Source of the DNA: a plasmid | Reading direction: 5' to 3' (one strand) | DNA: 64,000 bases | Sequence record: NZ_CP128206.1 | Shown here: positions 32,479 to 56,290 of the stretch, piece by piece | Layout: each line of letters begins with the position of its first letter | How positions within the stretch are numbered: position 1 is the first letter of the stretch | Position numbers and translations under genes: made by a program | The notes under the pieces: generated by a model | Database searches by the model: none | Seen by the model: the letters and a program-made list of their open reading frames with translations, nothing else | What the model was told of the DNA's origin: nothing

Positions 32479-32495
32479 AATGTGTCTCCATTAGA

Positions 32496-32536
32496 CAAAA
32501 AAATGGGACACATTACCCCTACGGGCTTTGTGTCCC
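32496..32536 (-). terminator. rho-independent terminator (stem GGGACACA / TGTGTCCC, loop AAGCCCGTAGGGGTAA, T7) just upstream of traN
   Basis: Perfect 8-bp stem plus ATTTTTTT. Confidence 0.65.
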
Positions 32537-32561
32537 GTTTGGGGTTTGAATTAATATCGAC

Positions 32562-32678
32562 CTATTTATCTAGATGATACTTTTTGCTGTAGTGCTTGAC
32601 GACTTGCCATCCGACAATACCAAGTATTGTCACAAAGCCAATACACATACCAAGATAGATTAGTGCGCCAGTAGTCAT
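32562..32678 (-). CDS. small membrane peptide (38 aa) with a strong RBS
   Basis: AAGGAGAATCAT-ATG; MTTGALIYLGMCIGFVTILGIVGWQVVKHYSKKYHLDK. Confidence 0.35.
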   Translation of the reverse strand: MTTGALIYLGMCIGFVTILGIVGWQVVKHYSKKYHLDK

Positions 32679-32728
32679 ATGATTCTCCTTTTCGATAAGT
32701 ATAACAAAGTGGCGTTTTTTAAACCAAA

Positions 32729-32962
32729 TTATTCCTCTCCATCGCTGTTTTGAACCATATCACCTATCACCAAGCCCACATCAATAATCACATAGGCGAG
32801 CATAAATGCTATACCGACTGCAATTGTGATGACGTTCATTGGGATATTGTCTGCTGTGCTAACTAAGTTGATTCCTCCTGTGACCATTATACCTGCGCCT
32901 ATTGCTAGGAACACATTGGCAAACGCTCGAAGAAATGCTTTTTTTATAATATTCATACGCAT
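32729..32962 (-). CDS. small membrane protein (77 aa, 2 TM)
   Basis: Hydrophobic ORF upstream of traN. Confidence 0.4.
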   Translation of the reverse strand: MRMNIIKKAFLRAFANVFLAIGAGIMVTGGINLVSTADNIPMNVITIAVGIAFMLAYVIIDVGLVIGDMVQNSDGEE

Positions 32963-33104
32963 TACCTCATTTGTTATTTTGAATATTTAATAACAGAGAT
33001 AAACGTATGGCCCGTAAGGGATAGTTTATCCCCGTTGGGCTGAACACATCGTCAAAGTAAAAACTTATCGGATGGTAAAGAGTGACCGTTATTGGTCAAT
33101 TGAA

Positions 33105-34160
33105 AAGGCCTTGTTGCTTAAATCAATGGAACTAAATCAGGAAGCTACGATCTGATCGGCTACACCCATCAATCGTCGTAGCCTCATGCCTAAACCTCGT
33201 TACAAAACAACTAACTGGAAGCAGTACAATAAATCCTTAATCAACCGTGGTTCTCTGGCCTTTTGGATTGATGAGGAAGCGATAGCTGAGTGGAAGCAAA
33301 ACAAACAAGGCAAGCGTGGTAGACCTCGCCGATTCAGCGACTTAGCCATTACTACCGCACTGATGGTGAAACGCGTTTTCTCTATGCCCTTGAGAGCGCT
33401 GCAAGGTTTTCTAGACTCCGTATTTAAGCTGGCTAACATCCCGCTTGTTTGCCCGCACTACACCTGTATAAGCCGCCGAGCTAAGGAAGTTGAAGTTTCA
33501 TTTAAAACCAAAACCAGAGGAGCAATACAACATCTGGCCATTGATGCCACTGGCCTCAAGGTTTATGGCGAAGGTGAATGGAAGGTCAAGAAGCATGGAA
33601 CTGATGGGAAGCGAAGAGTCTGGCGTAAGCTGCATATCGCGGTAGATACAAGCACCCACGAAATAGTCGCAGCAGAGCTGAGCTTATCTAACGTAACTGA
33701 TGCCGAAGTGCTCCCCAACTTACTCAAGCAAACACGTCGTAAAATCATTGAGATATCAGGCGATGGGGCTTATGACACAAGGAATTGCCATGATGCCATA
33801 CGGATCAAGCGAGCTGTTCCGCTCATCCCGCCAAGAGAAGGAGCAGCCTTCTGGGAACAAGGGCATCCTCGTAACTTAGCGGTAGGTTGCCAGAAGCTCT
33901 ACGGCTCCAACAAGAAGTGGAAAAAGCGGTATGGCTATCATAAGCGCTCTCTATCAGAGACCGCAATGTACCGAGTAAAACAGCTGCTAGGTGGGAAATT
34001 AAGCCTGAGGAACTACAACGCTCAAGTTGGCGAGACTTACGCTATGATTAAAGCCCTGAATAAGCTTACAGGGCTTGGCATGCCTGAAACACAGTATATC
34101 GGTTAAGAATTAAGCACAATGGGGCAGGCATGGCTTATCTATGAATTAAGCAACAAAGCC
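33105..34160 (+). mobile_element. IS5-family (IS903-group) insertion sequence, copy 1; left IR GGCCTTGTTGCTTAAATCAATGGAAC, right IR ...GAATTAAGCAACAAAGCC
   Basis: Terminal IRs typical of the IS903 group; 306-aa transposase. No 9-bp target duplication (AATTGAAAA vs TTTAATAAT). Confidence 0.9.
33186..34106 (+). CDS. IS903-group transposase (306 aa)
   Basis: MPKPRYKTTNWKQYNKSLINRGSLAFWIDEEA... is IS903-like. Confidence 0.92.
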   Translation: MPKPRYKTTNWKQYNKSLINRGSLAFWIDEEAIAEWKQNKQGKRGRPRRFSDLAITTALMVKRVFSMPLRALQGFLDSVFKLANIPLVCPHYTCISRRAKEVEVSFKTKTRGAIQHLAIDATGLKVYGEGEWKVKKHGTDGKRRVWRKLHIAVDTSTHEIVAAELSLSNVTDAEVLPNLLKQTRRKIIEISGDGAYDTRNCHDAIRIKRAVPLIPPREGAAFWEQGHPRNLAVGCQKLYGSNKKWKKRYGYHKRSLSETAMYRVKQLLGGKLSLRNYNAQVGETYAMIKALNKLTGLGMPETQYIG

Positions 34161-34943
34161 TTTAATAATATCAATTTCGCTGAACCATTCCTGTGTGCTC
34201 CAATCGCTCGTATTTTGACTAGTTCGAATCATCACCGTTTGACCAATCATCGTTTGAGCTTTGTTCAAAACTTCTAATGCAGACTCTTTGTATTTAGTAA
34301 TACTCATTTTTCTGGTATCGCCTGTACTATTTTTGATGATAATAATTGAACCTACTTTCGATGCTGATACCAGTGTTCCAAAGTCATTCCACACAAAATT
34401 GTTCATTTCTAAAACCTTATAAACGGTTGTACGACTGCATCCTAACTCTTTACTAATAGCATGCTTGTTCATTCCCTGCTCAGCAAACGCTTCTATGCGT
34501 TCATGTAGTTGCTTATCAGGAAATCGTCCGATGTGCCTGCCTTCAGCTTTAGCTCTCTCCCTGCCCTCGTTACAGCGCTGTAAGATACGTTTTCTTTCCA
34601 TTTCTGCGAAAGCGGAAATCGTTGTGTAAATGACCCGTCCCACATCACTATTGATGTCTAAATCCCCGAGGTCATGAAACACCAGTCCAGCCCCCTTATC
34701 TGAAAGCTCATCGGCAATCTTAAGAGCATCTATCGTATTACGTGCAATGCGGTCCACTTTAGTTACATGGATAACATCACCTTCACGGGCAAACTCGATC
34801 AAGCGAGAAAGCTCTTCACGATCAGCCGACTTTCCGCTGGCTTTTTCCTGGAATACTTTCTCACATCCTATCGATTGAAGTTGCTCAAGCTGAACATTCA
34901 GAGTTTGGTCGTCAGAACTAACACGGGCATAGCCGATTTTCAT
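34146..34943 (-). CDS. serine recombinase (resolvase-like) with a C-terminal extension. The 3' end was replaced by the IS903-group IR; the last 4 codons and stop come from the IR.
   Basis: Catalytic-Ser N-terminus MKIGYARVSSDDQTLNVQ... The ORF ends ...GFVA* within GGCTTTGTTGCTTAA of the IS terminal repeat. Confidence 0.8.
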   Translation of the reverse strand: MKIGYARVSSDDQTLNVQLEQLQSIGCEKVFQEKASGKSADREELSRLIEFAREGDVIHVTKVDRIARNTIDALKIADELSDKGAGLVFHDLGDLDINSDVGRVIYTTISAFAEMERKRILQRCNEGRERAKAEGRHIGRFPDKQLHERIEAFAEQGMNKHAISKELGCSRTTVYKVLEMNNFVWNDFGTLVSASKVGSIIIIKNSTGDTRKMSITKYKESALEVLNKAQTMIGQTVMIRTSQNTSDWSTQEWFSEIDIIKGFVA

Positions 34944-35143
34944 GATAGAGGCCTTAAAGTGAACAATAAGATAAGCAGTAATTAGTGTACATGTTCACTA
35001 ATAATAATTAAGACTAACTGAACAGTTTTGTGATGGGTGCTTCATTATGTCCATAAAGGTACACCTTTATGGACATTTAGTCATAACATTCGAATAGTTT
35101 AAATCGTTCGATTCGTTTATAATTAACCCAAAGGAGAGTAACT

Positions 35144-35389
35144 ATGCAATCATTAACAGCAAATACAGCAAAAACCAAATTTGGCGATTTACTGATGAAG
35201 GTTCAGCGTGAACCCGTGCAAATCAGTAAAAATGGCTCACCGGTTGCGGTGATGATGTCCTGTGAAGAATATGAGCAATTAGAAGCACTCAAGATGATGC
35301 TGGTTAAATCTCGTTTTGAACAGGCAGAAATTGATATCAGGAATGGCGATCTGGTCGATGGTGATGAATTTATGAAATCTCTGGCTTAA
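35144..35389 (+). CDS. Phd/YefM-family antitoxin (81 aa)
   Basis: Family signature; immediately upstream of a ParE/RelE-type toxin gene. Confidence 0.8.
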   Translation: MQSLTANTAKTKFGDLLMKVQREPVQISKNGSPVAVMMSCEEYEQLEALKMMLVKSRFEQAEIDIRNGDLVDGDEFMKSLA

Positions 35390-35403
35390 GGGTTAATGTT
35401 TTC

Positions 35404-35706
35404 ATGAGCAGTTATAAGCTTTCACCTTTAGCCCAGTCTGATCTCACTGATATTCGTCGTTACACCATAGAACATTGGGGCAGTACTCAATGGTCCGTCT
35501 ATTTTAATGAATTACAGGAATCGATGTCATTGCTGGCAAGTAACGAACTGATCGGAATTCAGATCCCGGAAATGGGAGAGCGATACTACCGTTTTCCTCT
35601 GAAGCACCATGTGATTTATTACATCACTCAGGAAGACCATATCGTTATCGTCGCTGTGCTGGGTAAGCATATGTCTCCTGCAAAACATTTTGCGTCTATT
35701 TCTTAA
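35404..35706 (+). CDS. ParE/RelE-superfamily toxin (100 aa)
   Basis: Pairs with the upstream antitoxin; ParE-like N-terminus. Confidence 0.75.
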   Translation: MSSYKLSPLAQSDLTDIRRYTIEHWGSTQWSVYFNELQESMSLLASNELIGIQIPEMGERYYRFPLKHHVIYYITQEDHIVIVAVLGKHMSPAKHFASIS

Positions 35707-36305
35707 TTTTTTAATTTCCGGCGAATAATATAATCACGCAATGTGCTCGGTGCTTCATCTATCAACTTTGCCGTAGGCCGGATACCTAGCCCCATTTTGA
35801 GGTATTTTTCGATTTGATCACGTTTAGCGTCCAGCTTTAATTTATTTGCCGGCCCTTTAGGTCTGCCAAGAATTACCCCATCCTTTTTGCGTGCCGCCAG
35901 TGCTTCTTTGGTCCGCATCGAGATAAACTCGCGTTCAATCTCAGCGGCGAGCCCAAGCACTGTTGCGGTAATTCTGGCCTGCATAGAGCCGTCCAGCTGC
36001 ATGTTCTGTTTGGCTATGTACACATCGATTTTTTTCTCCATGCATACTTCCAACACTTCAAGTACCTGTAAGGTAGAACGGGCGATACGGCTCACTTCGG
36101 CAAAAATGAGTTTATCTCCGGATGTCATGCCCTCTATCAGAGCTCCGAGTTTGCGCTCGTGCCATTTTTTCTTGCCTGTGACGATGTCTTCAACAAAGCA
36201 AAGACCGGATAAACCAACTTTGTTGGCGTATTCATAGATACCGTGCTTTTGGTTAGCAACATCCTGGCTGTCGGAAGATACTCTAAGGTAGGCGTAGTGG
36301 GTCAT
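35703..36305 (-). CDS. serine recombinase (resolvase/invertase family, 200 aa)
   Basis: MTHYAYLRVSSDSQDVANQ... catalytic N-terminal domain plus a C-terminal HTH. Confidence 0.85.
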   Translation of the reverse strand: MTHYAYLRVSSDSQDVANQKHGIYEYANKVGLSGLCFVEDIVTGKKKWHERKLGALIEGMTSGDKLIFAEVSRIARSTLQVLEVLEVCMEKKIDVYIAKQNMQLDGSMQARITATVLGLAAEIEREFISMRTKEALAARKKDGVILGRPKGPANKLKLDAKRDQIEKYLKMGLGIRPTAKLIDEAPSTLRDYIIRRKLKN

Positions 36306-36465
36306 GGCAATCTCCTTTTGTTCAGGAGTGTTATAACAATCCCAGACATAAAAAAGGTGTGCGATTACCTGGATTGTGACCTTTAAAAAATAAAAAGAAG
36401 AAAGAAATGTAATTGTTATTGTTGTGGTTAACTGTGTAAATCTTTGATTTTCCAGTTATCCACAT

Positions 36466-36474
36466 CAGCTATAA
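36466..36474. promoter_or_regulatory. consensus DnaA box TTATCCACA at the edge of an AT-rich, GATC-containing stretch of the origin
   Basis: Exact match to TTATCCACA, followed by ~100 bp of >75% AT with repeated AGATCTATAG. Confidence 0.6.
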
Positions 36475-36572
36475 AGATCTATAGATAACTATTAAAACTA
36501 TACAGACTATAAATCTATAAGATCTATAGTTTATGTAACGTACTGATTATTAATAATAAAAATAGCATTTAT

Positions 36573-36740
36573 GATCCTATTTTAGGTATTTAGATAACAC
36601 TATTCAGGTTGAAATGATCTTATTTCAGGTGTGGTTGATCACTTATCAGGTGAATAGATGACACATTTCAGGTGTTAATGATCGTATGTCAGGTGTTTAG
36701 ATGACAGTTTTTAGGTGTCCGGAAGTCAGATCAGGCACTT
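36573..36740. repeat. array of ~7 direct iterons (21-22 bp spacing, core TnTCAGGTG), with inverted partial copies at 36775-36920
   Basis: gatcttatttcaggtgtggtt / gatcacttatcaggtgaatag / atgacacatttcaggtgttaat / gatcgtatgtcaggtgtttag / atgacagtttttaggtgtcc ... Positioned downstream of the repA 3' end. Confidence 0.8.
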
Positions 36741-36914
36741 ACTGAGCATGGCGGATGTATTACAGCGATTACTACACCTGATTTCTGTCTTTGATACCGC
36801 TTAAGTATCACATTTTAGGTGGATCTCGTTCTTTACACCTAAAATGTGTCATACATCACGTGGATATACCTTATTTATGTCCGTTGTGGGAGATAAGCAC
36901 CTAAATTATGTCTG

Positions 36915-38009
36915 CTAGTACTCTGGGTTGTTACTGATTTCTGACAGGGTTTCTATCTTATCCAGCAGCGAATCAACTTCATTCTGAGTGTTTTCTTCTT
37001 GTTCTGCTTGTTGCTTAAGGTGACGTTTCGATAAGCTCTCTTCCACTTTGATGGCGTGTTCTTCTTTCCCTATGTAACGATAAGCAATCGCCAGGGACTC
37101 GAGCTCTGCTTTAGAAAGGCGAATGTTGTTTTGCAGCCTTTTAAGCTCAAGTTCCCGAATTGTTTTCAGTGCGTCATGCTGATTGAGTTCGTCTACAGTG
37201 CCGAGCTTTATCCAGCGGAACAGGAACTTGATCCCAGTGATGGTCCGGCCTTTCTTGATCACTTCAAATCCTTTTTCTCCGCTATCGCTTTCGAGAAATA
37301 GAAGTTCTTTTCGGATCTGTGGATGCTCAGAGAGTTCCTTAATGCTTTCACGAATACAGCGCTTCATGAATACGCTGTTGTTCTTAAAAGAAGTCTTATC
37401 CTTTTTAAGCTTCCCTGCTTCATTAAGGAGGCCAAAGACGCCTTTCAGCTCGTCGAGCTTTTGCTGGTGCATTTCAAAGCCTTTGTCTTTGAAGCGGCTC
37501 AGCAGCTCATAAAGGCGCTTGGAGTATTCTTTTTTTACATCAAAGAAATTACGGGTGTTGATCAAGGCAAATCCCTGATTGTACTCGATGTATTCAGATT
37601 TAAGCATGTCGTTAGGAACCATGGTTAATACACCATTTTTATAGGCAATATGCTTAAACAGAGGACGATAGTCGAACTCTGTATCTCCTTTTCTGGATTC
37701 GATTTTGATACCGATTTTACGGCTGGCCAGACGATTAGCTACCGGGCTTAAGTTACTGCCAATGTGTTTGGATTCAACGCCTAACCATTCTGATAACTGG
37801 TGTGAAGTGAATTCGTAATGTGGAGTGTTGGTATCCCAGTCAGCCGCTTTCATATGAGCCACCATCAGCGCAAACATATCCGCTTCCCTGGCTGAAAGAT
37901 CCTGACGGCTGAATACCAGCTGATGACCTTTCTTGATGTGCTTTGGCAGGTTGTCACTGACGACAGGATAGTAATATTGTTCTTCGCTCATGGTTTCCAT
38001 CCAAGACAT
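36915..38009 (-). CDS. repA: iteron-type plasmid replication initiator RepA (364 aa); resembles IncA/C-family RepA in size and organisation, assignment tentative
   Basis: Adjacent iteron array plus a DnaA box. Long 5' leader with a GATC cluster. Confidence 0.75.
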   Translation of the reverse strand: MSWMETMSEEQYYYPVVSDNLPKHIKKGHQLVFSRQDLSAREADMFALMVAHMKAADWDTNTPHYEFTSHQLSEWLGVESKHIGSNLSPVANRLASRKIGIKIESRKGDTEFDYRPLFKHIAYKNGVLTMVPNDMLKSEYIEYNQGFALINTRNFFDVKKEYSKRLYELLSRFKDKGFEMHQQKLDELKGVFGLLNEAGKLKKDKTSFKNNSVFMKRCIRESIKELSEHPQIRKELLFLESDSGEKGFEVIKKGRTITGIKFLFRWIKLGTVDELNQHDALKTIRELELKRLQNNIRLSKAELESLAIAYRYIGKEEHAIKVEESLSKRHLKQQAEQEENTQNEVDSLLDKIETLSEISNNPEY

Positions 38010-38934
38010 AACTTAGGTTAATTATTACATAATATAGGTGAGCTGAACAAATTAATACCTGGATTGTGTCACATAAAATTTGACAGATATATTTCTCTTT
38101 TGAGGCGGCGCAAAAACAGGCGTGTAATTGTTTTGATCCTCGCTGTTTAAAGATCAGATCTTCGATCTCAGCATGGATCTAAAAGAGATGCATAAATGAA
38201 AGTTTTTCCCCCTCAATTATGTCCGGTTCTTACATGCCGGTCGTTACGGGAAAAGACGCCAGCGACAGTAAATAAATGGGCGGCCATTGTGCTTGTACAA
38301 TCAAAGAAAATGTAAGTGACAACGTGATGTCGTCTTGACGGGTGACGCCTGAGTTTTGGTTTTAACTTACTCAGGATAAACAGGTTCTACGGGTGATGAT
38401 GACCCTGCCTTGCTGTTAGGTTGATTAATTTTTAACACAAACCAGTAAAGGAAACGGAAGAGAGTAACGCCTCGACCTGCGATGGAGTGGCGAACCATGT
38501 GACTAAGCCCAGCCCTAACTAATCTGTCACAAATTTACGCACCTGATAAAACATCACGAAGAAAAACCAACATCTTAAATATTCCTGGATGGGAGAAGAC
38601 AGGGTTGATGCTAACGCTTTTATGTGGCATCACCCAGCCCCGTCATAGACTTCCTATGTGCGAAAAATACGGTCGTTAATTTTAATCATCTACCCTAATC
38701 ATCATCACTGTCACTTATCATCCTATTGTTTACCCCTTTCTTTCGATTAAAAACCCGCGACGCTGTGCGAGATTAACCTGTGTCCCCTGCCCTCCCGGAT
38801 TGAGACGAGAGCTGGCTCCACTTTGTTCAATATACAACACCATTACATTTTTATTTCGGGTGAGTCGCAGGGAATTTGCTCACGCTTTTTTTATTTCTCT
38901 TACCTTGTATGTTGTAGCGGTCAGGAAGAAGAGT

Positions 38935-39657
38935 ATGCGATTTTTAAAACTTAGAACCGATCATAAACGCCAGCGAAAAGACGGGTCTCGTTATGTGACA
39001 CCTTTAATCGTAGATACCCCTCGTCGCTTTGCGCCAAGCCGGGATCGAAAAGAAACCAGCTTACGCCGAACCCAGTGTCAGCTGATAACCGGTGCGCATG
39101 ATTCGGGTAAAAGCCGGTGGCTCACCCGCCTGCGTGACAGCCGGCACGAGATCTGGGGCAGTAAACCACAACCGGTTTTGCTGGAAGGCCTGATGCCGCT
39201 TTCCAGCTGGGTGGAAGTGAAAGGGATTGAACAATGGTACGAAAATTGTCACGAAGAAGACGCCTGTTTTACTCCCTGGAGCAAGCTCAACCTGCAACTC
39301 AAAGCGGATTTACTGGCTGATTACCTGGTTGAGACTCAATCGCTGCTGTTCATCGACGATGCTCACAAGCTGACAGGACGTAAAGCACAGATAGCGCGTA
39401 AATGTCTGCTGTCAGCAAAAACCTGGCTGATGGCCTGCAGTGAAGAAGGACGCTTGCCTCCTTCTATTCGCCCTATTGTTGAAAGGCGTGAGCCTCAACG
39501 TATCAATCTGGAAAGTGACGTGAGTTACGACACAACGAAAGCCCTGATCTGGTTCATGGTTGCCTTATGTGTCGTTGCCGGCGCCTGGGAAGCGGGGGCT
39601 GTGATTGGGGGGCTTCAGATGTTGGGCAATGGACGGAGGTCTACCCGTGCAGATTAG
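38935..39657 (+). CDS. hypothetical protein (start taken at MRFLKL..., ~240 aa)
   Basis: ORF 38800..39657; the internal Met is preceded by AGGAAGAAGAG. Confidence 0.4.
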   Translation: MRFLKLRTDHKRQRKDGSRYVTPLIVDTPRRFAPSRDRKETSLRRTQCQLITGAHDSGKSRWLTRLRDSRHEIWGSKPQPVLLEGLMPLSSWVEVKGIEQWYENCHEEDACFTPWSKLNLQLKADLLADYLVETQSLLFIDDAHKLTGRKAQIARKCLLSAKTWLMACSEEGRLPPSIRPIVERREPQRINLESDVSYDTTKALIWFMVALCVVAGAWEAGAVIGGLQMLGNGRRSTRAD

Positions 39658-39667
39658 AGCACCCTGG

Positions 39668-40396
39668 ATGTTACTTGGGATACTGGCTGTTAGCCAAAGC
39701 TATGCGAATGACTGGGGGATCGATTCTCCCTGGAAGGAACCTGTCGCACCTCCTCCGGAAATAAAACCATTCGTGTTACCTACTCTCACAGGAGAAGCCC
39801 CACATTACAACACCCCTGCTCCGGCTTTAAAACCTGCCCCTAAAATCGACCCTGATGTTATTTTTCAAACCGTTCTGAATTGCTACCCGGAGAAGAGTAA
39901 ATTTAAGCTGGACTTAAGTCTGGTCGCGGGAATGAAAACCAATCTTGACGAGTACAACAGTGATGACTGGCCGGAAATCTCCGAGCACTATGTTGGGATT
40001 GTCGGCAAGATGCCGCTCTATTCCACGACAGAACAGTCACGGGAACGCCAGTGGGAGTATCAGCGTCGTACCTCAACCGCAACTTCGGTGGCGGCGTTTG
40101 CTCAGGCCCTTGCTGACCGTAATTATGCGTATCGTCTGATGGGACTGTATTTATCTCTCGAGGCTCGCTCACAGCAGCGTGTGGCTCAGGGGGTGGCAAG
40201 CGTTAATGAGCAAGTCGCATTACTTGAAAAGGTCGCGGGCTCTCATCGCAATGTTCTGGCGCATGAAGCCAAAATAGTAGAGCACCGGTTAGCACTGGTT
40301 GCACTCTGTGAAGACAGCTACAGTAAGAGGGTTAATCAGTACTTGCTGGACTTAGCGTTTCTTCCTCCTCATCAGGCGGAACATCAAAGCAAATGA
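39668..40396 (+). CDS. secreted hypothetical protein (signal peptide MLLGILAVSQSYA)
   Basis: Signal peptide; Pro-rich N-terminal segment. Confidence 0.5.
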   Translation: MLLGILAVSQSYANDWGIDSPWKEPVAPPPEIKPFVLPTLTGEAPHYNTPAPALKPAPKIDPDVIFQTVLNCYPEKSKFKLDLSLVAGMKTNLDEYNSDDWPEISEHYVGIVGKMPLYSTTEQSRERQWEYQRRTSTATSVAAFAQALADRNYAYRLMGLYLSLEARSQQRVAQGVASVNEQVALLEKVAGSHRNVLAHEAKIVEHRLALVALCEDSYSKRVNQYLLDLAFLPPHQAEHQSK

Positions 40397-40866
40397 AGTG
40401 GCTCAATCATGGTCTCATCGCTGGCGCTGTTTGTGCCGTTGTCTCGCCACCTCATGTACCCATATGCATTGCAGGAGCCACCGCTCCAGACTGGATTGAA
40501 TACGTTGTTAAAGTGTTTGGTCACAATATCAAGCATCGTGGCACTACCCATATTTTTACCCACTGGCTTATCGTTGCCCTCGTCTTCACATTTGTCTGGG
40601 ACTATCAGGGGGTAGGAATGGCGTTCGCATGGGGTGGTGTCAGCCATATCCTGACCGATGCCATGACCGTTTCCGGTGTTCCTTTTTCTCCCTACAGTGA
40701 CAGACGTTTCCATCTGTTTGGTGGACGGTTCCGGACCGGTGACCCGGTGGAATATGCCATCTCTGCTGGCGTTGTGATTGTCTGTATCGCTTTGTCTCAT
40801 ATCTCCGGAGGGCAAGGTTTGCTCCATTTTTTTATGACTGGGCCGGTATGTATGAGCGCGGATTAA
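40393..40866 (+). CDS. DUF457/YdjM-family membrane-bound metal-dependent hydrolase (157 aa)
   Basis: His-rich TM protein with the family pattern (HRGTTH, HILTD). Confidence 0.55.
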   Translation: MKWLNHGLIAGAVCAVVSPPHVPICIAGATAPDWIEYVVKVFGHNIKHRGTTHIFTHWLIVALVFTFVWDYQGVGMAFAWGGVSHILTDAMTVSGVPFSPYSDRRFHLFGGRFRTGDPVEYAISAGVVIVCIALSHISGGQGLLHFFMTGPVCMSAD

Positions 40867-41018
40867 TTGATGCTCTGGAGTGGAAAACAAACCGGTTCAG
40901 GCTGATTTAAATGGGCTGAAAGTTGTCAATATTCAGGCTGAATATCTTTTGGTTTTCGCTCCCGGTTCCATTATCCTAACCCCTTGGTTGATAAGTTGTT
41001 TGCAGTTAGAAGAGTGAG

Positions 41019-41720
41019 ATGGGCATTAATGTTTCCAAATCAAAACTGGTGTCACTGACCGATGCCCATGAGCGACTGGTTGTCACCCACCCGGATAAAA
41101 ATCCGGTGGAGTATAACCTCGGCTTAGAGAAATACCTGACGGCGGTTTTTCAGCGTAAGAAAGCCCGGAACAGGACCGGAGACGGTAATCCGCTCATTTA
41201 CGCACTGAAGAACATGCACAGGTTCCGTATTTCGGATGAAGACAGAGCGTCTCTGTTTGGATTGATGAAGTCCATTATTGCACGCCATTATCAGGGGGAA
41301 GTATTTGATCGTATTCTGCCTTTGCCCTCTTCAAAACCGGTGGTGTTCTGGGTGGCTCAGGCTTGTCAGGAAGCCCAGGGCGTGCCGGTTGAGCGTAATG
41401 CGTTTGTCAAAGCGACCAATGCCAATGTGCTGGCCCAGCTGCAGCAGGTGGAGAGCCACAAAGAAATTATTGAACTGAGGAAGTTACTGGAAGCGCGCAA
41501 ACCGAATGCGGTTTTTAGTATGAAAGACTTGTCGCAGTTTCAGCGTCAGTTTGTTGAGCCTGTCCGTCTGAACCCGTTTTTTACGCCCGAAGGCAGAGTG
41601 CTTTTGGTGGATGATTTGGTTTCCTCAGGTGCAACGTTTAAATCCGGCTATCGGTCGGTGAAAAACAAACATCCGGAAGTGGATATAGAATGCTTGTCGT
41701 TGCTTGGTCCGGTGACTTGA
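41019..41720 (+). CDS. phosphoribosyltransferase-domain protein (ComF/PRTase-like, 233 aa)
   Basis: PRPP-binding motif VLLVDDLVSSGATF near the C-terminus. Confidence 0.55.
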   Translation: MGINVSKSKLVSLTDAHERLVVTHPDKNPVEYNLGLEKYLTAVFQRKKARNRTGDGNPLIYALKNMHRFRISDEDRASLFGLMKSIIARHYQGEVFDRILPLPSSKPVVFWVAQACQEAQGVPVERNAFVKATNANVLAQLQQVESHKEIIELRKLLEARKPNAVFSMKDLSQFQRQFVEPVRLNPFFTPEGRVLLVDDLVSSGATFKSGYRSVKNKHPEVDIECLSLLGPVT

Positions 41721-41899
41721 CTCGGTAACGCAGGGACGTATAATTGAACATACAGACCGTACATGTGCTCTATGGTCTTTAAAGAAGATATGAGCGAAAG
41801 CTTATGAGCCCGAGCTGCACCCTGAAACGAGGTCAGACCATAAGGGTTGAGTATCGTTTAGTTAGGCATCGGCTAACACCATTAATTTATTAATGACAA

Positions 41900-41935
41900 C
41901 AGCGCCCGGTTTATCCGGGCGCTGTTGTATCTGCA
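41900..41935 (+). terminator. GC hairpin ACAGCGCCCGG-TTTAT-CCGGGCGCTGT downstream of the PRTase-like gene
   Basis: Perfect 11-bp stem. Confidence 0.5.
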
Positions 41936-42008
41936 GTTTACCACTCGTTTTATTCTCCGGAATTTTGTCAATATTCAGCCTGAATATTGACAAACTCCGC
42001 TCTGATAT

Positions 42009-42905
42009 TCATTCATATTTCAAGGTCTTAACCGTTTCTTTTGAGCAGGCGGAGAAGTGACGGGAAAGATCACTGCGGATACGGTCTGAGGCGTAATACA
42101 TAGTGTATCGATACTCCAGCCCCGGGCTGAAAGGACGGGTCACTACGTTATCTTTTGGCCACAGATGGGCGTTGAAAGGATCCAGCAAAGCAAGACAAAG
42201 CCCGTTGGCAACCAGACCGTATCCGGACAGCGATCGCTGAGTCGCGAACTGGAAGCGGACATCGATGTTGTGTTCCTCGAGCATGGCTTTATGCCGGTTC
42301 CATTCTATGCCGTCTTCATCGACCAGTTTTAGCAGGTTTTCTCCGTTCAGATCCTGAGGGTTAATCACCTCTTTCTCCGCAAGCCGATGGCCTGCCGGCA
42401 TCACACATACCCAGTTCACAGTGATCAGCGGCTCATCAATAAAGCCAAAATCGTAGCTGACATGGTTGGTAATAATCAGATCGTATTTGGCGTGACGCAA
42501 TCCCTGCATTAGCTGGTTGACGCTGTCAGAGAGCAGGCTTACCTGAACATCCGGATACGAAGTTACAAAGTCTTTGATGATGCGCGGTACCACCCAGGTA
42601 GCCAGAGCGGGCGTAGCCCCGATCGATAAACGGCCGCGTGAGGAATGACGAAGATTTTCCGCCACACTTTCCAGGTGCTTAATGCCGTGAAAGATGTTTT
42701 TCACCTCATCGTAAAACGCCATCGCTTCCGCAGTCGGGTGCATCCGGCCCTTTTCCTTACGGAATAATTCAAACTCGACGCCTTCCTGCAAATCCTTGAT
42801 GAGCCGGCTGACAGAAGGCTGGGAAATACGCAGCTCTTCGGCTGCCCGGGAAAATGACCCGGTCTGAATGACCGAGAGAAAAGCCTGAAGCTGTTTATAT
42901 TGCAT
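42009..42905 (-). CDS. LysR-family transcriptional regulator (298 aa)
   Basis: HTH N-terminus plus substrate-binding domain. Divergent from the transporter gene. Confidence 0.9.
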   Translation of the reverse strand: MQYKQLQAFLSVIQTGSFSRAAEELRISQPSVSRLIKDLQEGVEFELFRKEKGRMHPTAEAMAFYDEVKNIFHGIKHLESVAENLRHSSRGRLSIGATPALATWVVPRIIKDFVTSYPDVQVSLLSDSVNQLMQGLRHAKYDLIITNHVSYDFGFIDEPLITVNWVCVMPAGHRLAEKEVINPQDLNGENLLKLVDEDGIEWNRHKAMLEEHNIDVRFQFATQRSLSGYGLVANGLCLALLDPFNAHLWPKDNVVTRPFSPGLEYRYTMYYASDRIRSDLSRHFSACSKETVKTLKYE

Positions 42906-43055
42906 GAGTAATACCTATAGCATTTTCAAATAATACTATACAAAAATGGCCATTGAATAAATAAGGTATGTGTGGAACATTGCCCGTACACCGGATGAAT
43001 TATTTCCCGGAAAGCAAAACGGATTTACTTGGACATACAGAAACGGAGAACTGTC

Positions 43056-44510
43056 ATGAGTACGATGAGCCAGGAGCAGAGCCGCTCCCGGGAAACTGAG
43101 ATGCCGAGCCGTTGGTATCAGCGCTTCCCTGATCCTATGGTACTGATTTTTTATATTCTGCTGGTTGCCAGTGCGCTGACCTGGCTGGTACCTAAAGGTG
43201 CCTACGATACCGAAAGCGTCGACGGACGCCAGCGGGTTATCGCCGGTTCCTTTCATTACTTAACTGAGAGTGACGCACCGGCCGGTGTGTTTAGCGTCAT
43301 CAATAAGCTGTTCGATATTTTTGTCGCCATCCCGCAGGGGCTGGTTCAGTCGGCGCAATACCTGTTTATTGTGTTCATTGCCGGAGGACTGTTTAACATT
43401 CTTTACCGCACCCACGCACTGGAAAACTTCGTCGGTTCTTCTGTTAAGCGTATCGGTCTGGAACGCGGTAATCTGCTGATCTGGTTATCCACTTACCTTT
43501 ATGGTGTATTCGGGATTGCAGTGGGTTTTGAAAACAACATTGCGCTGGTACCGGTCGCGCTGCTGGTTTCGAGTGCCTTGGGTTATAAGAACCTGGTTGG
43601 GGCCTGCATTGCGATCGGGGGGATTGGAATTGGTTTCGCTCTGTCACCGATTAACCCTTACACCGTCGGTGTGGCGCAGAATATTGCCGGGCTGCCGATT
43701 TTCTCAGGCGCTCTGGTCCGTTGTATTTTAACCTTTGTCTGTCTGTCGATGCTTGCCTGGTACATCACTGCGGTTGTCGCTCCCAAAGCGCGCAGCGAAG
43801 ATACCGGACAGGACGGGTTATCTTCTGAACTCAGCAGCTACAGCATGAGCATGCAGGACAAAGCCGTCATTCTGATTTTTCTGGCCGGTATTGTGGTTAT
43901 TGCCGGATGTTCCTATCTGGCGGGTACTGGCGCGCTGGGCCGCAGCTGGTACATTAAAGAAATCACGGCGGTATTCCTGCTGATCTCTATTGCGATTGCC
44001 GCTACCTGCCGTATCGGTGCCAATCAATACGTGAAATACATGATTGAAGGGGCATCCGGCGTGACTGGAGGAGCTCTGGTTATCGGTCTGGCAGCTTCGA
44101 TTAAAGTGGTGCTGGAAGACGGCCAAATCATTTATACCATAGTGCACACCTTTAACCTGCTGATTGGCTACGTACCGGACGCGCTGACAGCGGTCACTAT
44201 TAGTGTGATTCAGGGGTTCATTAACCTGTTTATTCCGAGTGGTTCAGGACAGGCTCTGGTGACCATGCCTATTCTGATCCCGCTGGCAGACCTGATTGGT
44301 ATCAGCCATCAGGTGATGATTTTGGCGTTTCAGGTCGGTGACGGCATCACTAACCTGATCATCCCGACCTCAGGCGGTACGCTGGCCATGCTGGCTCTGG
44401 CCAAGGTGAGTTTTTCCAATTGGGTGAAAACCATCTTCCCGGTCATTGTCATGGCATATGTCTTAAGCTGGGTATGTCTGGTAATAGCCCAGTACACCAA
44501 CTGGTCATAA
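43056..44510 (+). CDS. YfcC-family (C4-dicarboxylate anaerobic carrier superfamily) membrane transporter, ~484 aa
   Basis: Polytopic membrane protein with YfcC-family motifs. Start chosen at the ATG after GGAGAA. Confidence 0.75.
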   Translation: MSTMSQEQSRSRETEMPSRWYQRFPDPMVLIFYILLVASALTWLVPKGAYDTESVDGRQRVIAGSFHYLTESDAPAGVFSVINKLFDIFVAIPQGLVQSAQYLFIVFIAGGLFNILYRTHALENFVGSSVKRIGLERGNLLIWLSTYLYGVFGIAVGFENNIALVPVALLVSSALGYKNLVGACIAIGGIGIGFALSPINPYTVGVAQNIAGLPIFSGALVRCILTFVCLSMLAWYITAVVAPKARSEDTGQDGLSSELSSYSMSMQDKAVILIFLAGIVVIAGCSYLAGTGALGRSWYIKEITAVFLLISIAIAATCRIGANQYVKYMIEGASGVTGGALVIGLAASIKVVLEDGQIIYTIVHTFNLLIGYVPDALTAVTISVIQGFINLFIPSGSGQALVTMPILIPLADLIGISHQVMILAFQVGDGITNLIIPTSGGTLAMLALAKVSFSNWVKTIFPVIVMAYVLSWVCLVIAQYTNWS

Positions 44511-44559
44511 ACAAGAGACCGCAGCGTGGCTGGCACCGCGCTGCTGTATGGAGATGTAA

Positions 44560-45465
44560 GTGAATACAGTGAAAAATATCGCGTTGATCGGCGGCACCCA
44601 CGGTAATGAGTTATCCGGGATTTATCTGGTGAAAAAGTGGCAGCAGAACCGGACACTGACGCAGTGGCCTGAGCTCAGCATCACTACCAAAATTTCAAAT
44701 CCGAGAGCCTGTGAGAACAGTGTGCGTTATATGGAATCGGATCTGAACCGGGAATTCTGTCAGGCTGATCTGGACGATAACAGTAAGGTCGGTTACGAGC
44801 AGTTGCTGGCAAAAAAGCTTAACGCTGAACTGGGGCCAAAAGGTGCGTCACCGTTTGATTTCATTATCGATCTGCACAACACCACCTCTAACATGGGAGC
44901 GTGTCTGATGCTGTTGAAAAAAGATGATTTCAACTTAAAGCTGGGCGCGTATGTTAAAAGCCGCATGCCGGAATCGAACATCTACTTCCAGGACAATATC
45001 CCGGAGAACAAACGCAGCTTTCTGATCACCATCGCAGAGCAGGGGGTGACGGTCGAAGTCGGCGCACAGCCAAATTCAGTGTTGCAGCATAAAACGCTGG
45101 AGCTGATGGAAACCATGACCGCGCACATCCTGAACTTTTGTGAGCAGTATAATCAGGGCTCTGAACTGGACCTGCCGGACGGTTATGAGGCCTTCCAGTA
45201 CTGCGGAGACCTGAAGCTGCCGATGACCGAAAACGGTGAACGAAACGGAATGGTGCTGAAATCGATTGATCAGCGTGACTTCTCTCCGGTTGAACCGGGG
45301 CAGGCGATCATGGAGACCTTCGATGGCCAACTAATTTACTGGGAAGGCGATTATACTGCTTATCCGTTGTTCATCAATGAAGCGGCATATCGAAAAAGCA
45401 GCAACGCGATGAGCCTGTCAAAGAAAATCACGATAAGCGGGTATCAGGCCTGTCTTACTGAGTAA
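44560..45465 (+). CDS. aspartoacylase / succinylglutamate-desuccinylase family Zn hydrolase (301 aa)
   Basis: GGTHGNE motif and family length. Confidence 0.75.
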   Translation: MNTVKNIALIGGTHGNELSGIYLVKKWQQNRTLTQWPELSITTKISNPRACENSVRYMESDLNREFCQADLDDNSKVGYEQLLAKKLNAELGPKGASPFDFIIDLHNTTSNMGACLMLLKKDDFNLKLGAYVKSRMPESNIYFQDNIPENKRSFLITIAEQGVTVEVGAQPNSVLQHKTLELMETMTAHILNFCEQYNQGSELDLPDGYEAFQYCGDLKLPMTENGERNGMVLKSIDQRDFSPVEPGQAIMETFDGQLIYWEGDYTAYPLFINEAAYRKSSNAMSLSKKITISGYQACLTE

Positions 45466-45557
45466 AATTTTCACGAATGAAAAACGTCTGAAGCCGTGTT
45501 ATTACTTGGTTCTTCAGGCTTTTTTTGTTTGTGGTTGCGCTGATGTTTAGGAACAAT

Positions 45558-46622
45558 AAAGTTTGTACGGCTTTGTTGCGTAATTCGATGGAACTAAATC
45601 AAGAAACTACGATCTGAGCGGCTACGCCCATCAATCGTCGTAGCCTCATGCCTAAACCTCGTTACAAAACAACTAACTGGAAGCAGTACAATAAATCCTT
45701 AATCAACCGTGGTTCTCTGGCCTTTTGGATTGATGAGGAAGCGATAGCTGAGTGGAAGCAAAACAAACAAGGCAAGCGTGGTAGACCTCGCCGATTCAGC
45801 GACTTAGCCATTACTACCGCACTGATGGTGAAACGCGTTTTCTCTATGCCCTTGAGAGCGCTGCAAGGTTTTCTAGACTCCGTATTTAAGCTGGCTAACA
45901 TCCCGCTTGTTTGCCCGCACTACACCTGTATAAGCCGCCGAGCTAAGGAAGTTGAAGTTTCATTTAAAACCAAAACCAGAGGAGCAATACAACATCTGGC
46001 CATTGATGCCACTGGCCTCAAGGTTTATGGCGAAGGTGAATGGAAGGTCAAGAAGCATGGAACTGATGGGAAGCGAAGAGTCTGGCGTAAGCTGCATATC
46101 GCGGTAGATACAAGCACCCACGAAATAGTCGCAGCAGAGCTGAGCTTATCTAACGTAACTGATGCCGAAGTGCTCCCCAACTTACTCAAGCAAACACGTC
46201 GTAAAATCATTGAGATATCAGGCGATGGGGCTTATGACACAAGGAATTGCCATGATGCCATACGGATCAAGCGAGCTGTTCCGCTCATCCCGCCAAGAGA
46301 AGGAGCAGCCTTCTGGGAACAAGGGCATCCTCGTAACTTAGCGGTAGGTTGCCAGAAGCTCTACGGCTCCAACAAGAAGTGGAAAAAGCGGTATGGCTAT
46401 CATAAGCGCTCTCTGTCAGAGACCGCAATGTACCGAGTAAAACAGTTGCTAGGTGGGAAATTAAGTCTAAGAAATTACAACGCTCAGGTTGGCGAGACTT
46501 ACGCCATGATCAAAGCACTGAACAAACTTACAGGGCTTGGTATGCCTGAAACTCAGTATATTGTATAAAAGTCGCTCAACTTTAGGAGGTTTGGTTTCTC
46601 GTCTGAATTACGCAACAAAGCC
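45558..46622 (+). mobile_element. IS5-family (IS903-group) insertion sequence, copy 2; direct repeat of copy 1; transposase 45648..46568 identical to copy 1
   Basis: Left IR GGCTTTGTTGCGTAATTCGATGGAAC, right IR ...GAATTACGCAACAAAGCC. No target duplication (AGTTTGTAC vs GATTATTGA). Confidence 0.9.
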
Positions 46623-46912: not shown

Positions 46913-46947
46913 GCTTATTGCTTATTGCTTATTGCTTATTGCTTATT
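46913..46947. repeat. (GCTTATT)x5 heptanucleotide tandem repeat overlapping the parB stop codon
   Basis: Five perfect tandem copies. Confidence 0.9.
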
Positions 46948-52448: not shown

Positions 52449-52607
52449 TTGAACATCATTCGGCTCCCCATTAAATTGCCCGTAACTATTTTTTTGTTCA
52501 GTGGTTAAAAAAATCTACGGGCATAGCCAAAACCTCTTATTGGTTACACAAACTCAAATCAGTGACGTATTGTTTTCCCATTTCCGGCATGTAAGCCATG
52601 AGGAATT

Positions 52608-52907
52608 TTAATAAATATCTGGATGGAAATGCCGCAATGGTTCCATTTGCTGATGAAGAATACGGATTATGTAAATACTATGAGGTTGTGGGCGATAAAA
52701 AATAGCATGTTTATGGTGATCGTGGCGGCGAAGCCCTTCGGCAATTTCGGGGCACTCGTAACCCATCAAAGGTTGTTCTGCAAGCGTTAGCAAAACGTCA
52801 TGCATACTGTCTGTATAAGCATCCGCTTGCTCTATGCCAAAGTTCAATAGGGTGTATTCAAAGATATGCTCAAAGTCTTCTGCGGCGAGGTTGGAAAGTT
52901 TATACAT
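52608..52907 (-). CDS. parE: ParE-family toxin (99 aa)
   Basis: ParE-like sequence overlapping the upstream antitoxin gene by 8 nt. Confidence 0.75.
   Translation of the reverse strand: MYKLSNLAAEDFEHIFEYTLLNFGIEQADAYTDSMHDVLLTLAEQPLMGYECPEIAEGLRRHDHHKHAIFYRPQPHSIYIIRILHQQMEPLRHFHPDIY

Positions 52908-55018: not shown

Positions 55019-56290
<1,272 letters not shown>

Follow-up and report, generated by a model that had tools for sequence, protein, structure and literature searches.

Two ISVa2-type elements around the replicon of a Vibrio furnissii plasmid probably arrived separately

Introduction

Plasmid cointegrates and multi-replicon plasmids formed through insertion sequences (IS) are exemplified by the fusions mediated by IS26 or IS257, iteron plasmids with Rep_3 initiators by pSC101, R6K (pi), F (RepE) and pPS10, and the parS site of P1 contains an inverted pair of A boxes. 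Closer to the locus studied here are ISVa2, or 'Vibrio IS903', and pirAB-Tn903 of the AHPND plasmids (pVA1/pVH family), where solitary copies of the element make 9-bp target duplications while a cargo-bracketing pair has none (PMC5294582).

Here we analyse a 64-kb window from a circular plasmid of Vibrio furnissii (about 70-86 kb), of which the remaining ~10-20 kb lie outside; all coordinates are those of the window. Two IS903-group elements enclose a replicon. They resemble those of pirAB-Tn903 (PMC5294582) in length (1,054 bp), in their transposase of about 306 aa and in the 18-bp inverted repeat GAATTACGCAACAAAGCC, which is identical to the end of copy 2. In pirAB-Tn903, however, identical inverted copies enclose accessory toxin genes, whereas in the window different isoforms in direct orientation enclose the plasmid's own replicon, and in contrast to that comparison we found no evidence that the bracketed unit of the window was acquired as such.

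Results

Judged by its sequence, the window belongs to the V. furnissii plasmid family of pVFBJ07-1 and FDAARGOS_777. The two-IS arrangement is common to four public plasmid records at 99.8-100% identity: pVFBJ07-1 (CP128202), FDAARGOS_777 unnamed1 (CP040989), CP064380 and the pVFBJ05 plasmid of V. furnissii (PMC11027346) share the backbone, both IS sites and the cargo of the window. Whether the DNA was circular or chromosomal had been left to be determined in a preliminary description, and the closest records (CP040989, CP064380 and CP128202) are circular plasmids of 71-76 kb with this arrangement at the same identity. Two features set the window apart from these relatives, an extra floR/ISVsa3/dfr island at 1-11050 and the absence of 33 bp to the left of IS copy 2; its plasmid is probably the floR-bearing variant of about 86 kb. 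IS copy 1 varies at 4-13 positions from plasmid to plasmid.

As first proposed, two full-length IS903-group elements (IS5 family) lie in direct (+) orientation. Copy 1 (33107..34160, 1,054 bp) encodes an intact DDE transposase of 306 aa (33186-34106, + strand) and ends in GGCCTTGTTGCTTAAATCA on the left and, read as reverse complement, GGCTTTGTTGCTTAATTCA on the right. Copy 2 (45569..46622, 1,054 bp), likewise with an intact 306-aa DDE transposase (45648-46568, + strand), has perfect 18-bp inverted repeats (GGCTTTGTTGCGTAATTC), shared with pirAB-Tn903, and is five nucleotides away from a solitary element that is annotated as belonging to the ISVa2 family. The preliminary description had placed both right-hand ends correctly, but its left-hand ends (33105 for copy 1 and 45558 for copy 2, the latter 11 bp too early) had to be moved. 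It had also called the copies and their transposases identical, whereas 50 of 1,054 positions differ (95.3% identity ungapped, 95.9% by BLAST) and the transposases share 305 of their 306 residues, the exception being G306V. All differences fall in the outer 266 bp, with 8 of 58 positions in 33107-33164 and 42 of 208 in 33953-34160; the ends are thus 14-20% apart, while the central 788 bp contain no difference at all (P about 1e-30 for this clustering). We read the two elements as different ISVa2 isoforms, copy 2 being ISVa2 proper and copy 1 a distinct isoform, with a converted centre: they would have come in separately, the central 788 bp being exchanged later through gene conversion. A recombinant ancestor could instead have passed the identical centre to both copies, with no conversion in this plasmid.

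These differences bear on an unresolved cointegrate, in which replicative transposition of a single IS would have joined a small Rep_3 plasmid to a larger circle that was replicon-less or had a second replicon. The direct IS copies do divide the circle into two arcs, and one flank of copy 1 stems from a different plasmid lineage. The replicative route, however, yields two identical IS and leaves one arc with identical 9-mers at its two ends, whereas here the ends differ by 14-20%, which does not fit a cointegrate from a single IS, and the 9-mers are unmatched on either arc; moreover, the native parAB would fall on the wrong arc. Cointegrate formation, or the cointegrate resolution suggested initially, is largely refuted by the non-identical ends, and we consider it highly improbable.

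The absence of a 9-bp target duplication at either copy was borne out in every pairing. The 9-mer to the right of copy 1 (TTTAATAAT) does not match that to the left of copy 2 (AGTTTGTAC), nor does that to the right of copy 2 (GATTATTGA) match that to the left of copy 1 (AATTGAAAA); the ~10-20 kb outside the 64-kb window could hold a matching partner. A solitary ISVa2 in pIDH5335-1, whose ends are the same, served as a positive control: it shows the perfect duplication CTTCACTAA. Together with PMC5294582, this copy validated both the IS boundaries and the 9-bp rule.

The flanks of copy 1 come from different plasmid lineages. To its left, 28078..33106 (- strand) is a conjugative-plasmid remnant like pIDH5335-2, with a TraN-containing fusion ORF (28078-32478, - strand) and a 77-aa ORF (32729-32962, - strand); in pIDH5335-2 the counterpart of 32201-33108 runs on, free of IS, into 7 kb that are absent from the window plasmid. 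To its right lies a 265-aa fusion ORF (34146..34943, - strand), residues 1-179 of which (34407-34943) are the small serine resolvase of the backbone (Resolvase and HTH_7 domains). From a Met at 34406 the ORF runs on into an unrelated small gene, of which it retains the first 83 aa and which is homologous to a 104-aa Shewanella plasmid protein; the 3' end of this gene was lost at copy 1, and its stop codon is provided by the IS. We therefore regard copy 1 as the apparent point of fusion between a fragment from a conjugative plasmid on its left and the Rep_3 backbone on its right, joined through IS-IS recombination or an IS-adjacent deletion. Either event would account for the absent target duplication and for the gene truncations on both sides. 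The earlier attribution of the absent duplications to IS-mediated recombination thus holds at least for copy 1.

The opposing scenario named earlier was that of a plain plasmid whose backbone genes are native and which received two simple insertions independently, their 9-bp duplications having decayed by point mutation. The data largely agree with it as regards the plain plasmid and its native backbone. The copies are also different isoforms, both lie in variable, non-essential regions, and ISVa2 remnants are found downstream of parB in pFORC54 too, marking this slot as insertion-prone. The flanks, however, show 99.8-100% identity both among the relatives and to the empty site of pIDH5335-2, leaving no room for 9 of 9 positions to decay, and at copy 1 the right-hand DNA is unlike the continuation of the empty site, with a truncated gene at that point. 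Two simple insertions are hence unlikely, and copy 1 is better read as a recombination junction than as an insertion with a decayed duplication. For copy 2 alone, a simple insertion followed by an adjacent deletion is possible.

The 11.4-kb inner segment consists of a maintenance core and 4.6 kb of cargo in the variable slot of the family; its gene content, from the resolvase through the aspartoacylase, was confirmed with Pfam and NCBIfam. About 6.5 kb of it (resolvase, Phd/ParE, second recombinase, oriV, Rep_3 repA and three backbone genes) represents the native core of a widespread plasmid family of Vibrionaceae without these IS, which answers the call for a backbone match: the core is kept at 72-75% nucleotide identity, with gene order and orientation unchanged, in the IS-free plasmids compared (pVIBHAR, pFORC54, CP082312, pVDT1, pLMG23674 and pCECT7223). 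The backbone genes include a Phd/YefM antitoxin (35144-35389, + strand) and its partner, a ParE toxin (35404-35706, + strand), forming a type II toxin-antitoxin pair; a second serine recombinase of 200 aa (35703..36305, - strand), nearest to the NCBIfam model of Mpi-family invertases at a score under the cut-off; two hypothetical proteins of 240 aa (38935-39657, + strand) and 249 aa (39647-40396, + strand); and a YdjM-family metal-dependent hydrolase (40393-40866, + strand), whose C-terminus is unlike that of relatives beyond aa 147.

The predicted origin, oriV (36456..36904, + strand), lies 3' of repA. It comprises the DnaA box TTATCCACA at 36456-36464, the only perfect one in the 64 kb, an AT-rich tract at 36465-36600 (22% GC) and six direct iterons at about 36604-36717 with 21-22 bp spacing and the core TYAGGTG; four more copies of the iteron motif, in both orientations, reach 36904. 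Of the 25 TYAGGTG motifs in the window, where 13.6 are expected, nine fall in 36625-36904. The initiator gene repA (36915..37991, - strand; 358 aa as annotated in relatives, the ORF extending to 38009) encodes a Rep_3-family protein with Rep3_N and Rep3_C domains, whose best NCBIfam match is RepM at 37 bits, far under the cut-off. Upstream of repA, a single inverted iteron-like copy at 38533-38556 is a possible repA operator. As in pSC101, R6K, F and pPS10, a WH1+WH2 Rep_3 protein is combined with direct repeats of about 22 bp and with a DnaA box and AT-rich tract adjoining the rep gene; unlike in these plasmids the origin is 3' of repA, and RepA is only distantly related to the characterised members. 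The suggestion of a complete iteron replicon with stability functions thus appears sound, whereas that of a multi-replicon plasmid does not: the window contains one Rep and one DnaA box/iteron origin, with no second Rep domain among all large ORFs scanned in the 64 kb and no second replicon in the PLSDB annotation of the complete relatives, which is itself incomplete. A second replicon could sit in the ~10-20 kb outside the window. On this question, VBR1 was excluded, indirectly only.

The partition genes parB (46936-48006, - strand, 356 aa) and parA (48006-49205, - strand, 399 aa, the ORF extending to 49265) form a P1-type (type Ia) operon just outside copy 2, as had been noted, 313 bp past it. 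ParB has a PF08775 C-terminal domain and is 37-44% identical to enterobacterial P1-like ParB proteins. Since parAB co-varies with the core (ParA 84-93%, ParB 68-83% and RepA 88-89% amino-acid identity), it appears to be the native, co-inherited partner of the replicon. A 29-bp palindrome is a candidate for a dispersed parS. Site 1 (40923..40951, core ATATTCAGGCTGAATAT at 40929-40945) is where homology to the IS-free relatives stops exactly, at 40945; site 2 (41965..41993) is a perfect 29-bp palindrome, TTGTCAATATTCAG-C-CTGAATATTGACAA; site 3 (47170-47198) lies inside parB, at codons 272-277. The 399-aa ParA and the PF08775 domain of ParB recall P1/P7-type (type Ia) systems, and like the box-A pair of P1 parS the candidate consists of two inverted half-sites with a single central base between them. 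Unlike in P1/P7, the candidate sites are dispersed, two to three per plasmid and kilobases apart, one within the parB coding sequence, and neither an IHF site nor a box-B organisation could be made out at them. Further to the right (49518..55002) follow a Tn3-family tnpA (49518-52448, - strand), a ParE/ParD pair (52608-53142, - strand), a third serine recombinase (53338-53973, + strand) and a truncated third IS903-group copy (54474-55002, 81% identical).

Copy 2 lies in the variable slot that runs from ydjM to parB. A phosphoribosyltransferase-like gene (41019..41720, + strand; weak Pfam match only) forms a one-gene slot between palindrome sites 1 and 2, where relatives have pilin-like genes. 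The cargo operon (42009..45465) comprises lysR (42009-42905, - strand), a DcuC/YfcC-like transporter (43101-44510, + strand, ORF from 43029) and an aspartoacylase (44560-45465, + strand; NCBIfam equivalog, 338 bits against a cut-off of 180). The trio is also present on chromosome 2 of Vibrio sp. MA40-2 at 70% nucleotide identity, and on the MAG contig OZ223347 (L011) it is linked to the backbone with copy 2 absent. This contig parts from the window 25 bp ahead of copy 2; an exact empty site for copy 2 was not found.

Discussion

The preliminary description saw a potentially mobile replicon cassette, and possibly a plasmid/ICE hybrid. Of the conjugation genes only remnants are left, the TraN fusion and MobI; a relaxase, a coupling protein and a pilus operon were not found, and the closest complete relatives are typed as non-mobilizable; a hybrid is thus not what we see. 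A composite transposon or translocatable unit, in which the two IS903-group copies mobilise the 11.4-kb segment as a portable replicon cassette, has points in its favour: two intact transposase genes with complete terminal inverted repeats enclose the segment, the same type of IS makes pirAB-Tn903 in Vibrio plasmids, also without flanking duplications (PMC5294582), and the replicon did enter an IncC megaplasmid. This is pIDH5335-1 of V. fluvialis (370 kb), where the entire Rep_3/ParAB region is present and bounded by IS elements on either side. The shared block of 20.8 kb (33185 to 54034 of the window) begins, however, inside a truncated copy 1, runs across copy 2, parAB and more, and reaches 7.4 kb past copy 2. 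The bracketed unit has no flanking duplication, was never found in a second context and has no counterpart of about 12.5 kb in PLSDB; its content is the only replicon and the native core of its host, with the partition partner outside the bracket. Recombination between the directly repeated copies could loop out a 12,462-bp mini-replicon, and no sign of such an event, or of transposition of the bracketed unit, was detected. Mobilisation as a cassette is therefore quite improbable.

The presence of the Rep_3/ParAB region within IncC pIDH5335-1, with IS at the boundaries, and the inter-plasmid junction at copy 1 are both reminiscent of IS26- or IS257-mediated fusions. Unlike such multi-replicon plasmids, the window plasmid has a single replicon, and its partner gave only a replicon-less fragment of transfer genes.

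We consider it likely, at a probability of roughly 80%, that what the two IS enclose is cargo together with the sole basic replicon of the plasmid, native to it, with copy 1 at a junction and the two IS as separate arrivals. The phosphoribosyltransferase-like gene and the LysR/YfcC-like/aspartoacylase operon would have joined the backbone before copy 2 came. By its family membership, the Rep_3 RepA would bind the six 21-22-bp iterons by the AT-rich tract and the DnaA box. Stability would rest on four functions: post-segregational killing by Phd/ParE, multimer resolution by one or two serine recombinases, and partition by a P1-type ParAB that probably acts on the 29-bp palindromes either side of copy 2. 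The window thus comes from an ordinary mosaic plasmid of an already sequenced V. furnissii family.

The bracketed module belongs to a known plasmid family

The 11,408 bp enclosed by two IS903-group elements, copy 1 (33107-34160) and copy 2 (45569-46622), matched three complete circular V. furnissii plasmids of 71-76 kb (pVFBJ07-1, CP128202; FDAARGOS_777 unnamed1, CP040989; and CP064380) at 100%, and a 370-kb V. fluvialis plasmid (pIDH5335-1) at 99.9%. The BLAST check for a plasmid backbone that the preliminary description had proposed for 34161-45557 thus came out positive, and mapping of the whole window onto these plasmids placed both IS elements at identical sites. A clinical study has described this plasmid family together with an 85.6-kb member carrying a floR island (PMC11027346), and the left arm of the window fits that member. 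This arm (1-11050), a resistance island, includes a gene for a 404-aa MFS transporter (floR in the matching records), two ISVsa3/ISCR2-type Y2 transposase genes, one of them truncated, a split Tn3-family transposase, a dihydrofolate reductase and a DUF3363 fragment. It is 99.7% identical to islands of pAQU-type Vibrio megaplasmids, and no match to it was found in pVFBJ07-1 or in the examined part of FDAARGOS_777.

The proposal that the sequence might represent a multi-replicon plasmid or a plasmid/ICE hybrid was not upheld. Among all large ORFs scanned in the window only one carries a Rep domain, and the transfer genes are remnants, limited to a TraN fusion and MobI. A conjugative plasmid would be marked by a relaxase, a coupling protein and a complete mating-pair apparatus, and an ICE by an integrase as well; a relaxase, a coupling protein and a pilus operon were absent among the scanned ORFs, the complete relatives are typed as non-mobilizable, and the full tra operon that adjoins traN in V. 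fluvialis pIDH5335-2 is missing from the window. VBR1, a recently described replicon of pAQU-like plasmids, consists of vrp1A/vrp1B and a 570-bp oriV, with PF13481 present in Vrp1B (PMC12753305). The main text of that paper does not mention the plasmids considered here, the VBR1 plasmids being given in its tables, and no scanned ORF of the window matched PF13481; VBR1 as a hidden second replicon is thereby excluded only indirectly.

A MobI(A/C)-family gene is located at 18287-18847, and a relaxase and a T4SS are absent from the plasmid. An IncC/SXT-type oriT may lie beside this gene; if it does, IncC or SXT elements would be able to mobilise the plasmid in trans, which would fit the fusion with an IncC plasmid seen in V. 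fluvialis.

The flanking elements are two isoforms of ISVa2

A repeat search and base-by-base comparison showed that both elements are 1,054 bp long and in direct orientation, with a copy-to-copy offset of 12,462 bp. The pair reported in the preliminary description was recovered, its copy 2 having been started 11 bp too early; the reported identity of the copies was not. Of the 50 positions at which the copies differ, 8 lie within the first 58 bp and 42 within the last 208 bp, and the central 788 bp (33165-33952) is free of differences; under an even spread this clustering has P ~1e-30. The two 306-aa transposases differ only in the last residue (G306V), contain the Pfam domains DDE_Tnp_1_5 and DDE_Tnp_1, and score 386 bits against the NCBIfam IS5 equivalog (cut-off 140); in size and in the possession of a single DDE transposase of ~306 aa both copies conform to the IS903 group of the IS5 family.

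For assignment to ISVa2 we considered a length of ~1.05 kb, 18-bp inverted repeats of the GGCTTTGTTG type, a 9-bp target duplication and a nucleotide identity of at least ~95%. The inverted repeats of copy 2 are perfect (18/19 bp, GGCTTTGTTGCGTAATTC) and equal those published for the "Vibrio IS903" of AHPND plasmids (PMC5294582), and the copy shows 5 differences from a solitary element whose transposase is annotated as ISVa2 family. Copy 1 carries variant repeats with 2 mismatches between the arms and is 95.7-95.8% identical to the ISVa2 copies of pVA1-type plasmids; judged via annotated copies, identity to the named element is at least ~95%. In a multiple alignment of ten copies from four plasmids, copy 2 grouped as ISVa2 proper and copy 1 as a separate isoform with its own ends. 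Short patches of this alignment vary among plasmids that are otherwise 99.8% identical, a pattern such as would be expected of gene conversion between copies. Derivation of the divergent ends of copy 1 from a truncated third IS type (54474-55002) was ruled out by comparison. Between this truncated IS903-group copy and an IS3-family integrase-core ORF lies a borderline Rfam match to the Hfq-binding sRNA isrC (55074-55196; 39.4 bits, gathering score 39 bits), which may be IS-associated; Rfam gave no match within the IS-bracketed module.

Missing target duplications and the origin of the two copies

The 9-mers flanking copy 1 are AATTGAAAA and TTTAATAAT, those flanking copy 2 are AGTTTGTAC and GATTATTGA, and no pairing of the flanks of the two copies matches, in agreement with the earlier observation that neither has a 9-bp duplication. 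Shifted and cross-paired duplications were also considered for every full-length copy, the third one of pVFBJ07-1 among them, and apart from the control none reached 6/9 matching positions. In this control, a solitary ISVa2 of pIDH5335-1 that shares the same ends, the 9-bp duplication (CTTCACTAA) is perfect, and hence the inferred IS boundaries and the 9-bp rule are valid and the duplication is truly missing at the window copies. Since the solitary sibling has kept it, the absence reflects the history of copies 1 and 2 and not the type of element.

A search of PLSDB with artificial joints from which the IS had been removed found both flanks contiguous in no record for either copy, and turned up a one-sided empty site in pIDH5335-2. 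Here the left flank of copy 1 (32201-33108, 99.8% match) continues IS-free into 7 kb of DNA missing from the window and its relatives. In the right flank (34161-34406) lies the coding sequence for the N-terminal 83 residues of a small protein with a 104-aa homologue on a Shewanella plasmid; copy 1 truncates this small gene, and an in-frame fusion links it to the resolvase, which is homologous to its relatives only up to residue 179. On the evidence of both flanks, copy 1 is the junction of two plasmid lineages, each truncated at the IS, and it is not a simple insertion. IS-mediated recombination, one of two origins considered in the preliminary description, is accordingly supported for copy 1. 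No exact empty site was found for copy 2, which may have arisen either by insertion followed by an adjacent deletion or by recombination. The other, cointegrate resolution from one IS, would have left the products of a single replicative transposition. This model fails because the copies are distinct isoforms and neither arc of the circle is bordered by matching 9-mers.

Two peculiarities were noted near these junctions. In one alignment, homology to pIDH5335-2 ended within traN at ~32205-32254 and restarted elsewhere in that plasmid; the 1,466-aa "TraN" ORF (28078-32478) looks like a fusion, since its first ~90 codons (32201-32478) match the beginning of what is an independent 155-aa hypothetical gene in pIDH5335-2 and FDAARGOS_777. 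At 45568/45569, directly left of copy 2, all four relatives are 33 bp longer than the window, owing to an imperfect tandem duplication with AATAAAGTTTGTAC at its end.

Replication and partition functions

The gene list drawn up earlier for the interval between the IS copies was borne out by Pfam and NCBIfam. It comprises the resolvase ORF (34146-34943, minus strand), Phd/ParE (35144-35706), the second serine recombinase (35703-36305, minus strand) and a Rep_3 RepA (36915-37991, minus strand), followed by two hypotheticals, a YdjM hydrolase, a weakly PRT-like gene, and then LysR, a DcuC/YfcC-like transporter and an aspartoacylase (equivalog, 338 bits, cut-off 180). Defence-system models gave zero matches against the backbone hypotheticals and the PRT-like gene. 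A res site would most likely be situated between the small resolvase gene and phd (34974-35056), an intergenic region from which ~88 bp are deleted in pIDH5335-1.

RepA scored above cut-off with both PF01051 (82.9 bits) and PF21205 (28.8 bits), giving the WH1 plus WH2 arrangement. The origin sits 3' of repA and combines the DnaA box and iterons that had been described with an AT-rich tract, the set of elements expected of an iteron-type Rep_3 replicon. The box TTATCCACA (36456-36464) is the sole perfect DnaA box of the 64 kb, the tract has 22% GC, and six iterons with the core TYAGGTG are spaced at 21-22 bp; 9 of the 25 window copies of this core fall within 36625-36904, with 13.6 expected over the whole window. 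By domain content and origin anatomy this would be a typical Rep_3 iteron replicon. A composition profile had its GC minimum at oriV and revealed no sharp cargo boundaries. The origin segment 36393-36716 is also 79.5% identical to unannotated DNA of several V. parahaemolyticus, V. owensii and V. campbellii plasmids of 67-118 kb, mostly from shrimp, with no adjoining repA match at megablast sensitivity.

The partition operon was correctly placed immediately outside copy 2, with parB and then parA beginning 313 bp past it. ParA (399 aa, AAA_31/CbiA) and ParB (PF08775, 127 bits; TIGR00180) represent the long ParA and P1-type ParB in a single operon that characterize type Ia ParABS systems, and ParB is 37-44% identical to enterobacterial P1-like ParB; the pair is accordingly of P1 type. 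Five tandem TGCTTAT heptamers (46912-46946) overlap the 3' end of parB (stop codon 46936-46938), and the stretch differs by ~14 bp among relatives, which suggests a variable repeat number.

A native backbone with a variable cargo slot

Conservation of the region 34407-40945 (resolvase, TA pair, second recombinase, oriV, repA, two hypotheticals and ydjM) amounts to 72-75% at the nucleotide level, and its order and orientation are kept in plasmids that are IS-free at these sites (pVIBHAR, pFORC54, V. alginolyticus CP082312 and pVDT1). In CP082312 and pFORC54, read around the full circle, ydjM is followed by variable genes, parB and parA, as in the window, and the proteins diverge in step (ParA 84-93%, ParB 68-83% and RepA 88-89% amino acid identity). 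Because the circular order is kept and ParA and ParB diverge together with RepA, the bracketed replicon and the partition operon outside it constitute one inherited backbone.

Positions 40946-46981 correspond to the variable slot of the plasmid family. On chromosome 2 of Vibrio sp. MA40-2 the LysR/transporter/aspartoacylase operon stands by itself (70% nucleotide identity), and in a metagenome-assembled contig (OZ223347) it adjoins the same backbone (operon 95.7% nucleotide, RepA 97% amino acid identity) with no IS after the aspartoacylase gene. Since cargo and backbone are linked there without an IS, the cargo was not delivered by copy 2.

In V. rarus pLMG23674 and V. atlanticus pCECT7223 the Rep_3 RepA is missing from a backbone that still includes both recombinases, the two hypotheticals, YdjM and ParAB. 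Retention of the backbone in both without this protein argues that the replication module is exchangeable, independently of IS elements, in one maintenance backbone, within which it appears to have been swapped. pLMG23674 has a 'DNA mismatch repair protein' and a 'helicase RepA family protein' between the second recombinase and the hypotheticals (14153-16077), and in pCECT7223 an 'AAA family ATPase' (~31009-31923) adjoins the second recombinase. A connection with the AAA-type replication genes of VBR1 is conceivable.

Dispersed palindromes as candidate partition sites

A 29-bp palindrome, TTGTCA-ATATTCAG-S-CTGAATAT-TGACAA, was found three times in the window: at 40923-40951, the exact end of backbone homology to the relatives, at 41965-41993, and at 47170-47198 inside parB (codons ~272-277). 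For its core TTCAGNCTGAA the expectation is 0.06 occurrences per 64 kb, and ~115 kb of unrelated loci contained none; a relaxed palindrome scan of ~150 kb of unrelated DNA gave one chance match. All six full-plasmid family sequences scanned contain 2-3 palindromes each, one in parB at the same codons and one directly 3' of ydjM. The palindrome variant tracks ParB divergence, a symmetric form (ATGTTCAG-S-CTGAACAT) occupying every site in the two plasmids whose ParB has diverged most (68-71%). The palindromes also flank a variable one-gene slot, filled by the PRT-like gene in the window and by pilin-like genes elsewhere.

These sites are good candidates for dispersed P1-type parS, and their odd-centred inverted half-sites resemble the inverted box-A pair of P1 parS. 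Xer/dif-like sites, crossover sites of serine recombinases and terminators were rejected or down-weighted from the sequence: similarity to dif arms is lacking, the centre is a single odd base, the stem is AT-rich with a 1-nt loop, and one palindrome lies in a coding region. Taken jointly, the proposal that the palindromes are both dispersed P1-type ParAB centromeres, one always in parB, and boundaries for the exchange of single-gene or operon cargo cassettes, in a large Vibrionaceae family whose replication module is swapped IS-free within a constant maintenance backbone, is tentative, and we would give it about one chance in five.

Mobility and implications

The sole other context of the bracketed unit is pIDH5335-1, an IncC-typed plasmid of 370 kb, reported circular, which is a true multi-replicon fusion. 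The shared block corresponds to 33185-54034; it starts inside a copy 1 that lacks its left inverted repeat and spans copy 2, parAB, a Tn3-family transposase, ParDE and a third recombinase. It is the complete rep-par region, rather than the stretch bounded by the IS, that has moved, contrary to the idea of a mobilisable replicon cassette. A composite transposon of the Tn903 type was likewise rejected, as the unit has no flanking duplication and the only second context shares the larger block. Recombination between the direct repeats could structurally loop out a circle of 12,462 bp; no instance was observed, and PLSDB holds no record of ~12.5 kb with this content. Among described structures pirAB-Tn903 of AHPND plasmids comes closest; it also has no flanking duplications, and its identical inverted IS copies surround accessory genes (PMC5294582), whereas the copies described here are direct and non-identical. 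The IS bracket does not go beyond ordinary plasmid mosaicism and is present in four public records.

The result is thus mainly corrective: an IS-flanked replicon that looks portable is yet the native core of a known plasmid family, around which the IS pair consists of two separately acquired elements. Its practical weight is modest. Recombination between the direct repeats may leave the plasmid liable to collapse into a 12.5-kb mini-replicon, and the replicon, fused into an IncC resistance megaplasmid of V. fluvialis, contributes to the multi-replicon resistance plasmids of clinical vibrios. For classifying the many untyped Vibrionaceae plasmids with this backbone, the candidate parS sites and the swappable replication module could prove helpful.
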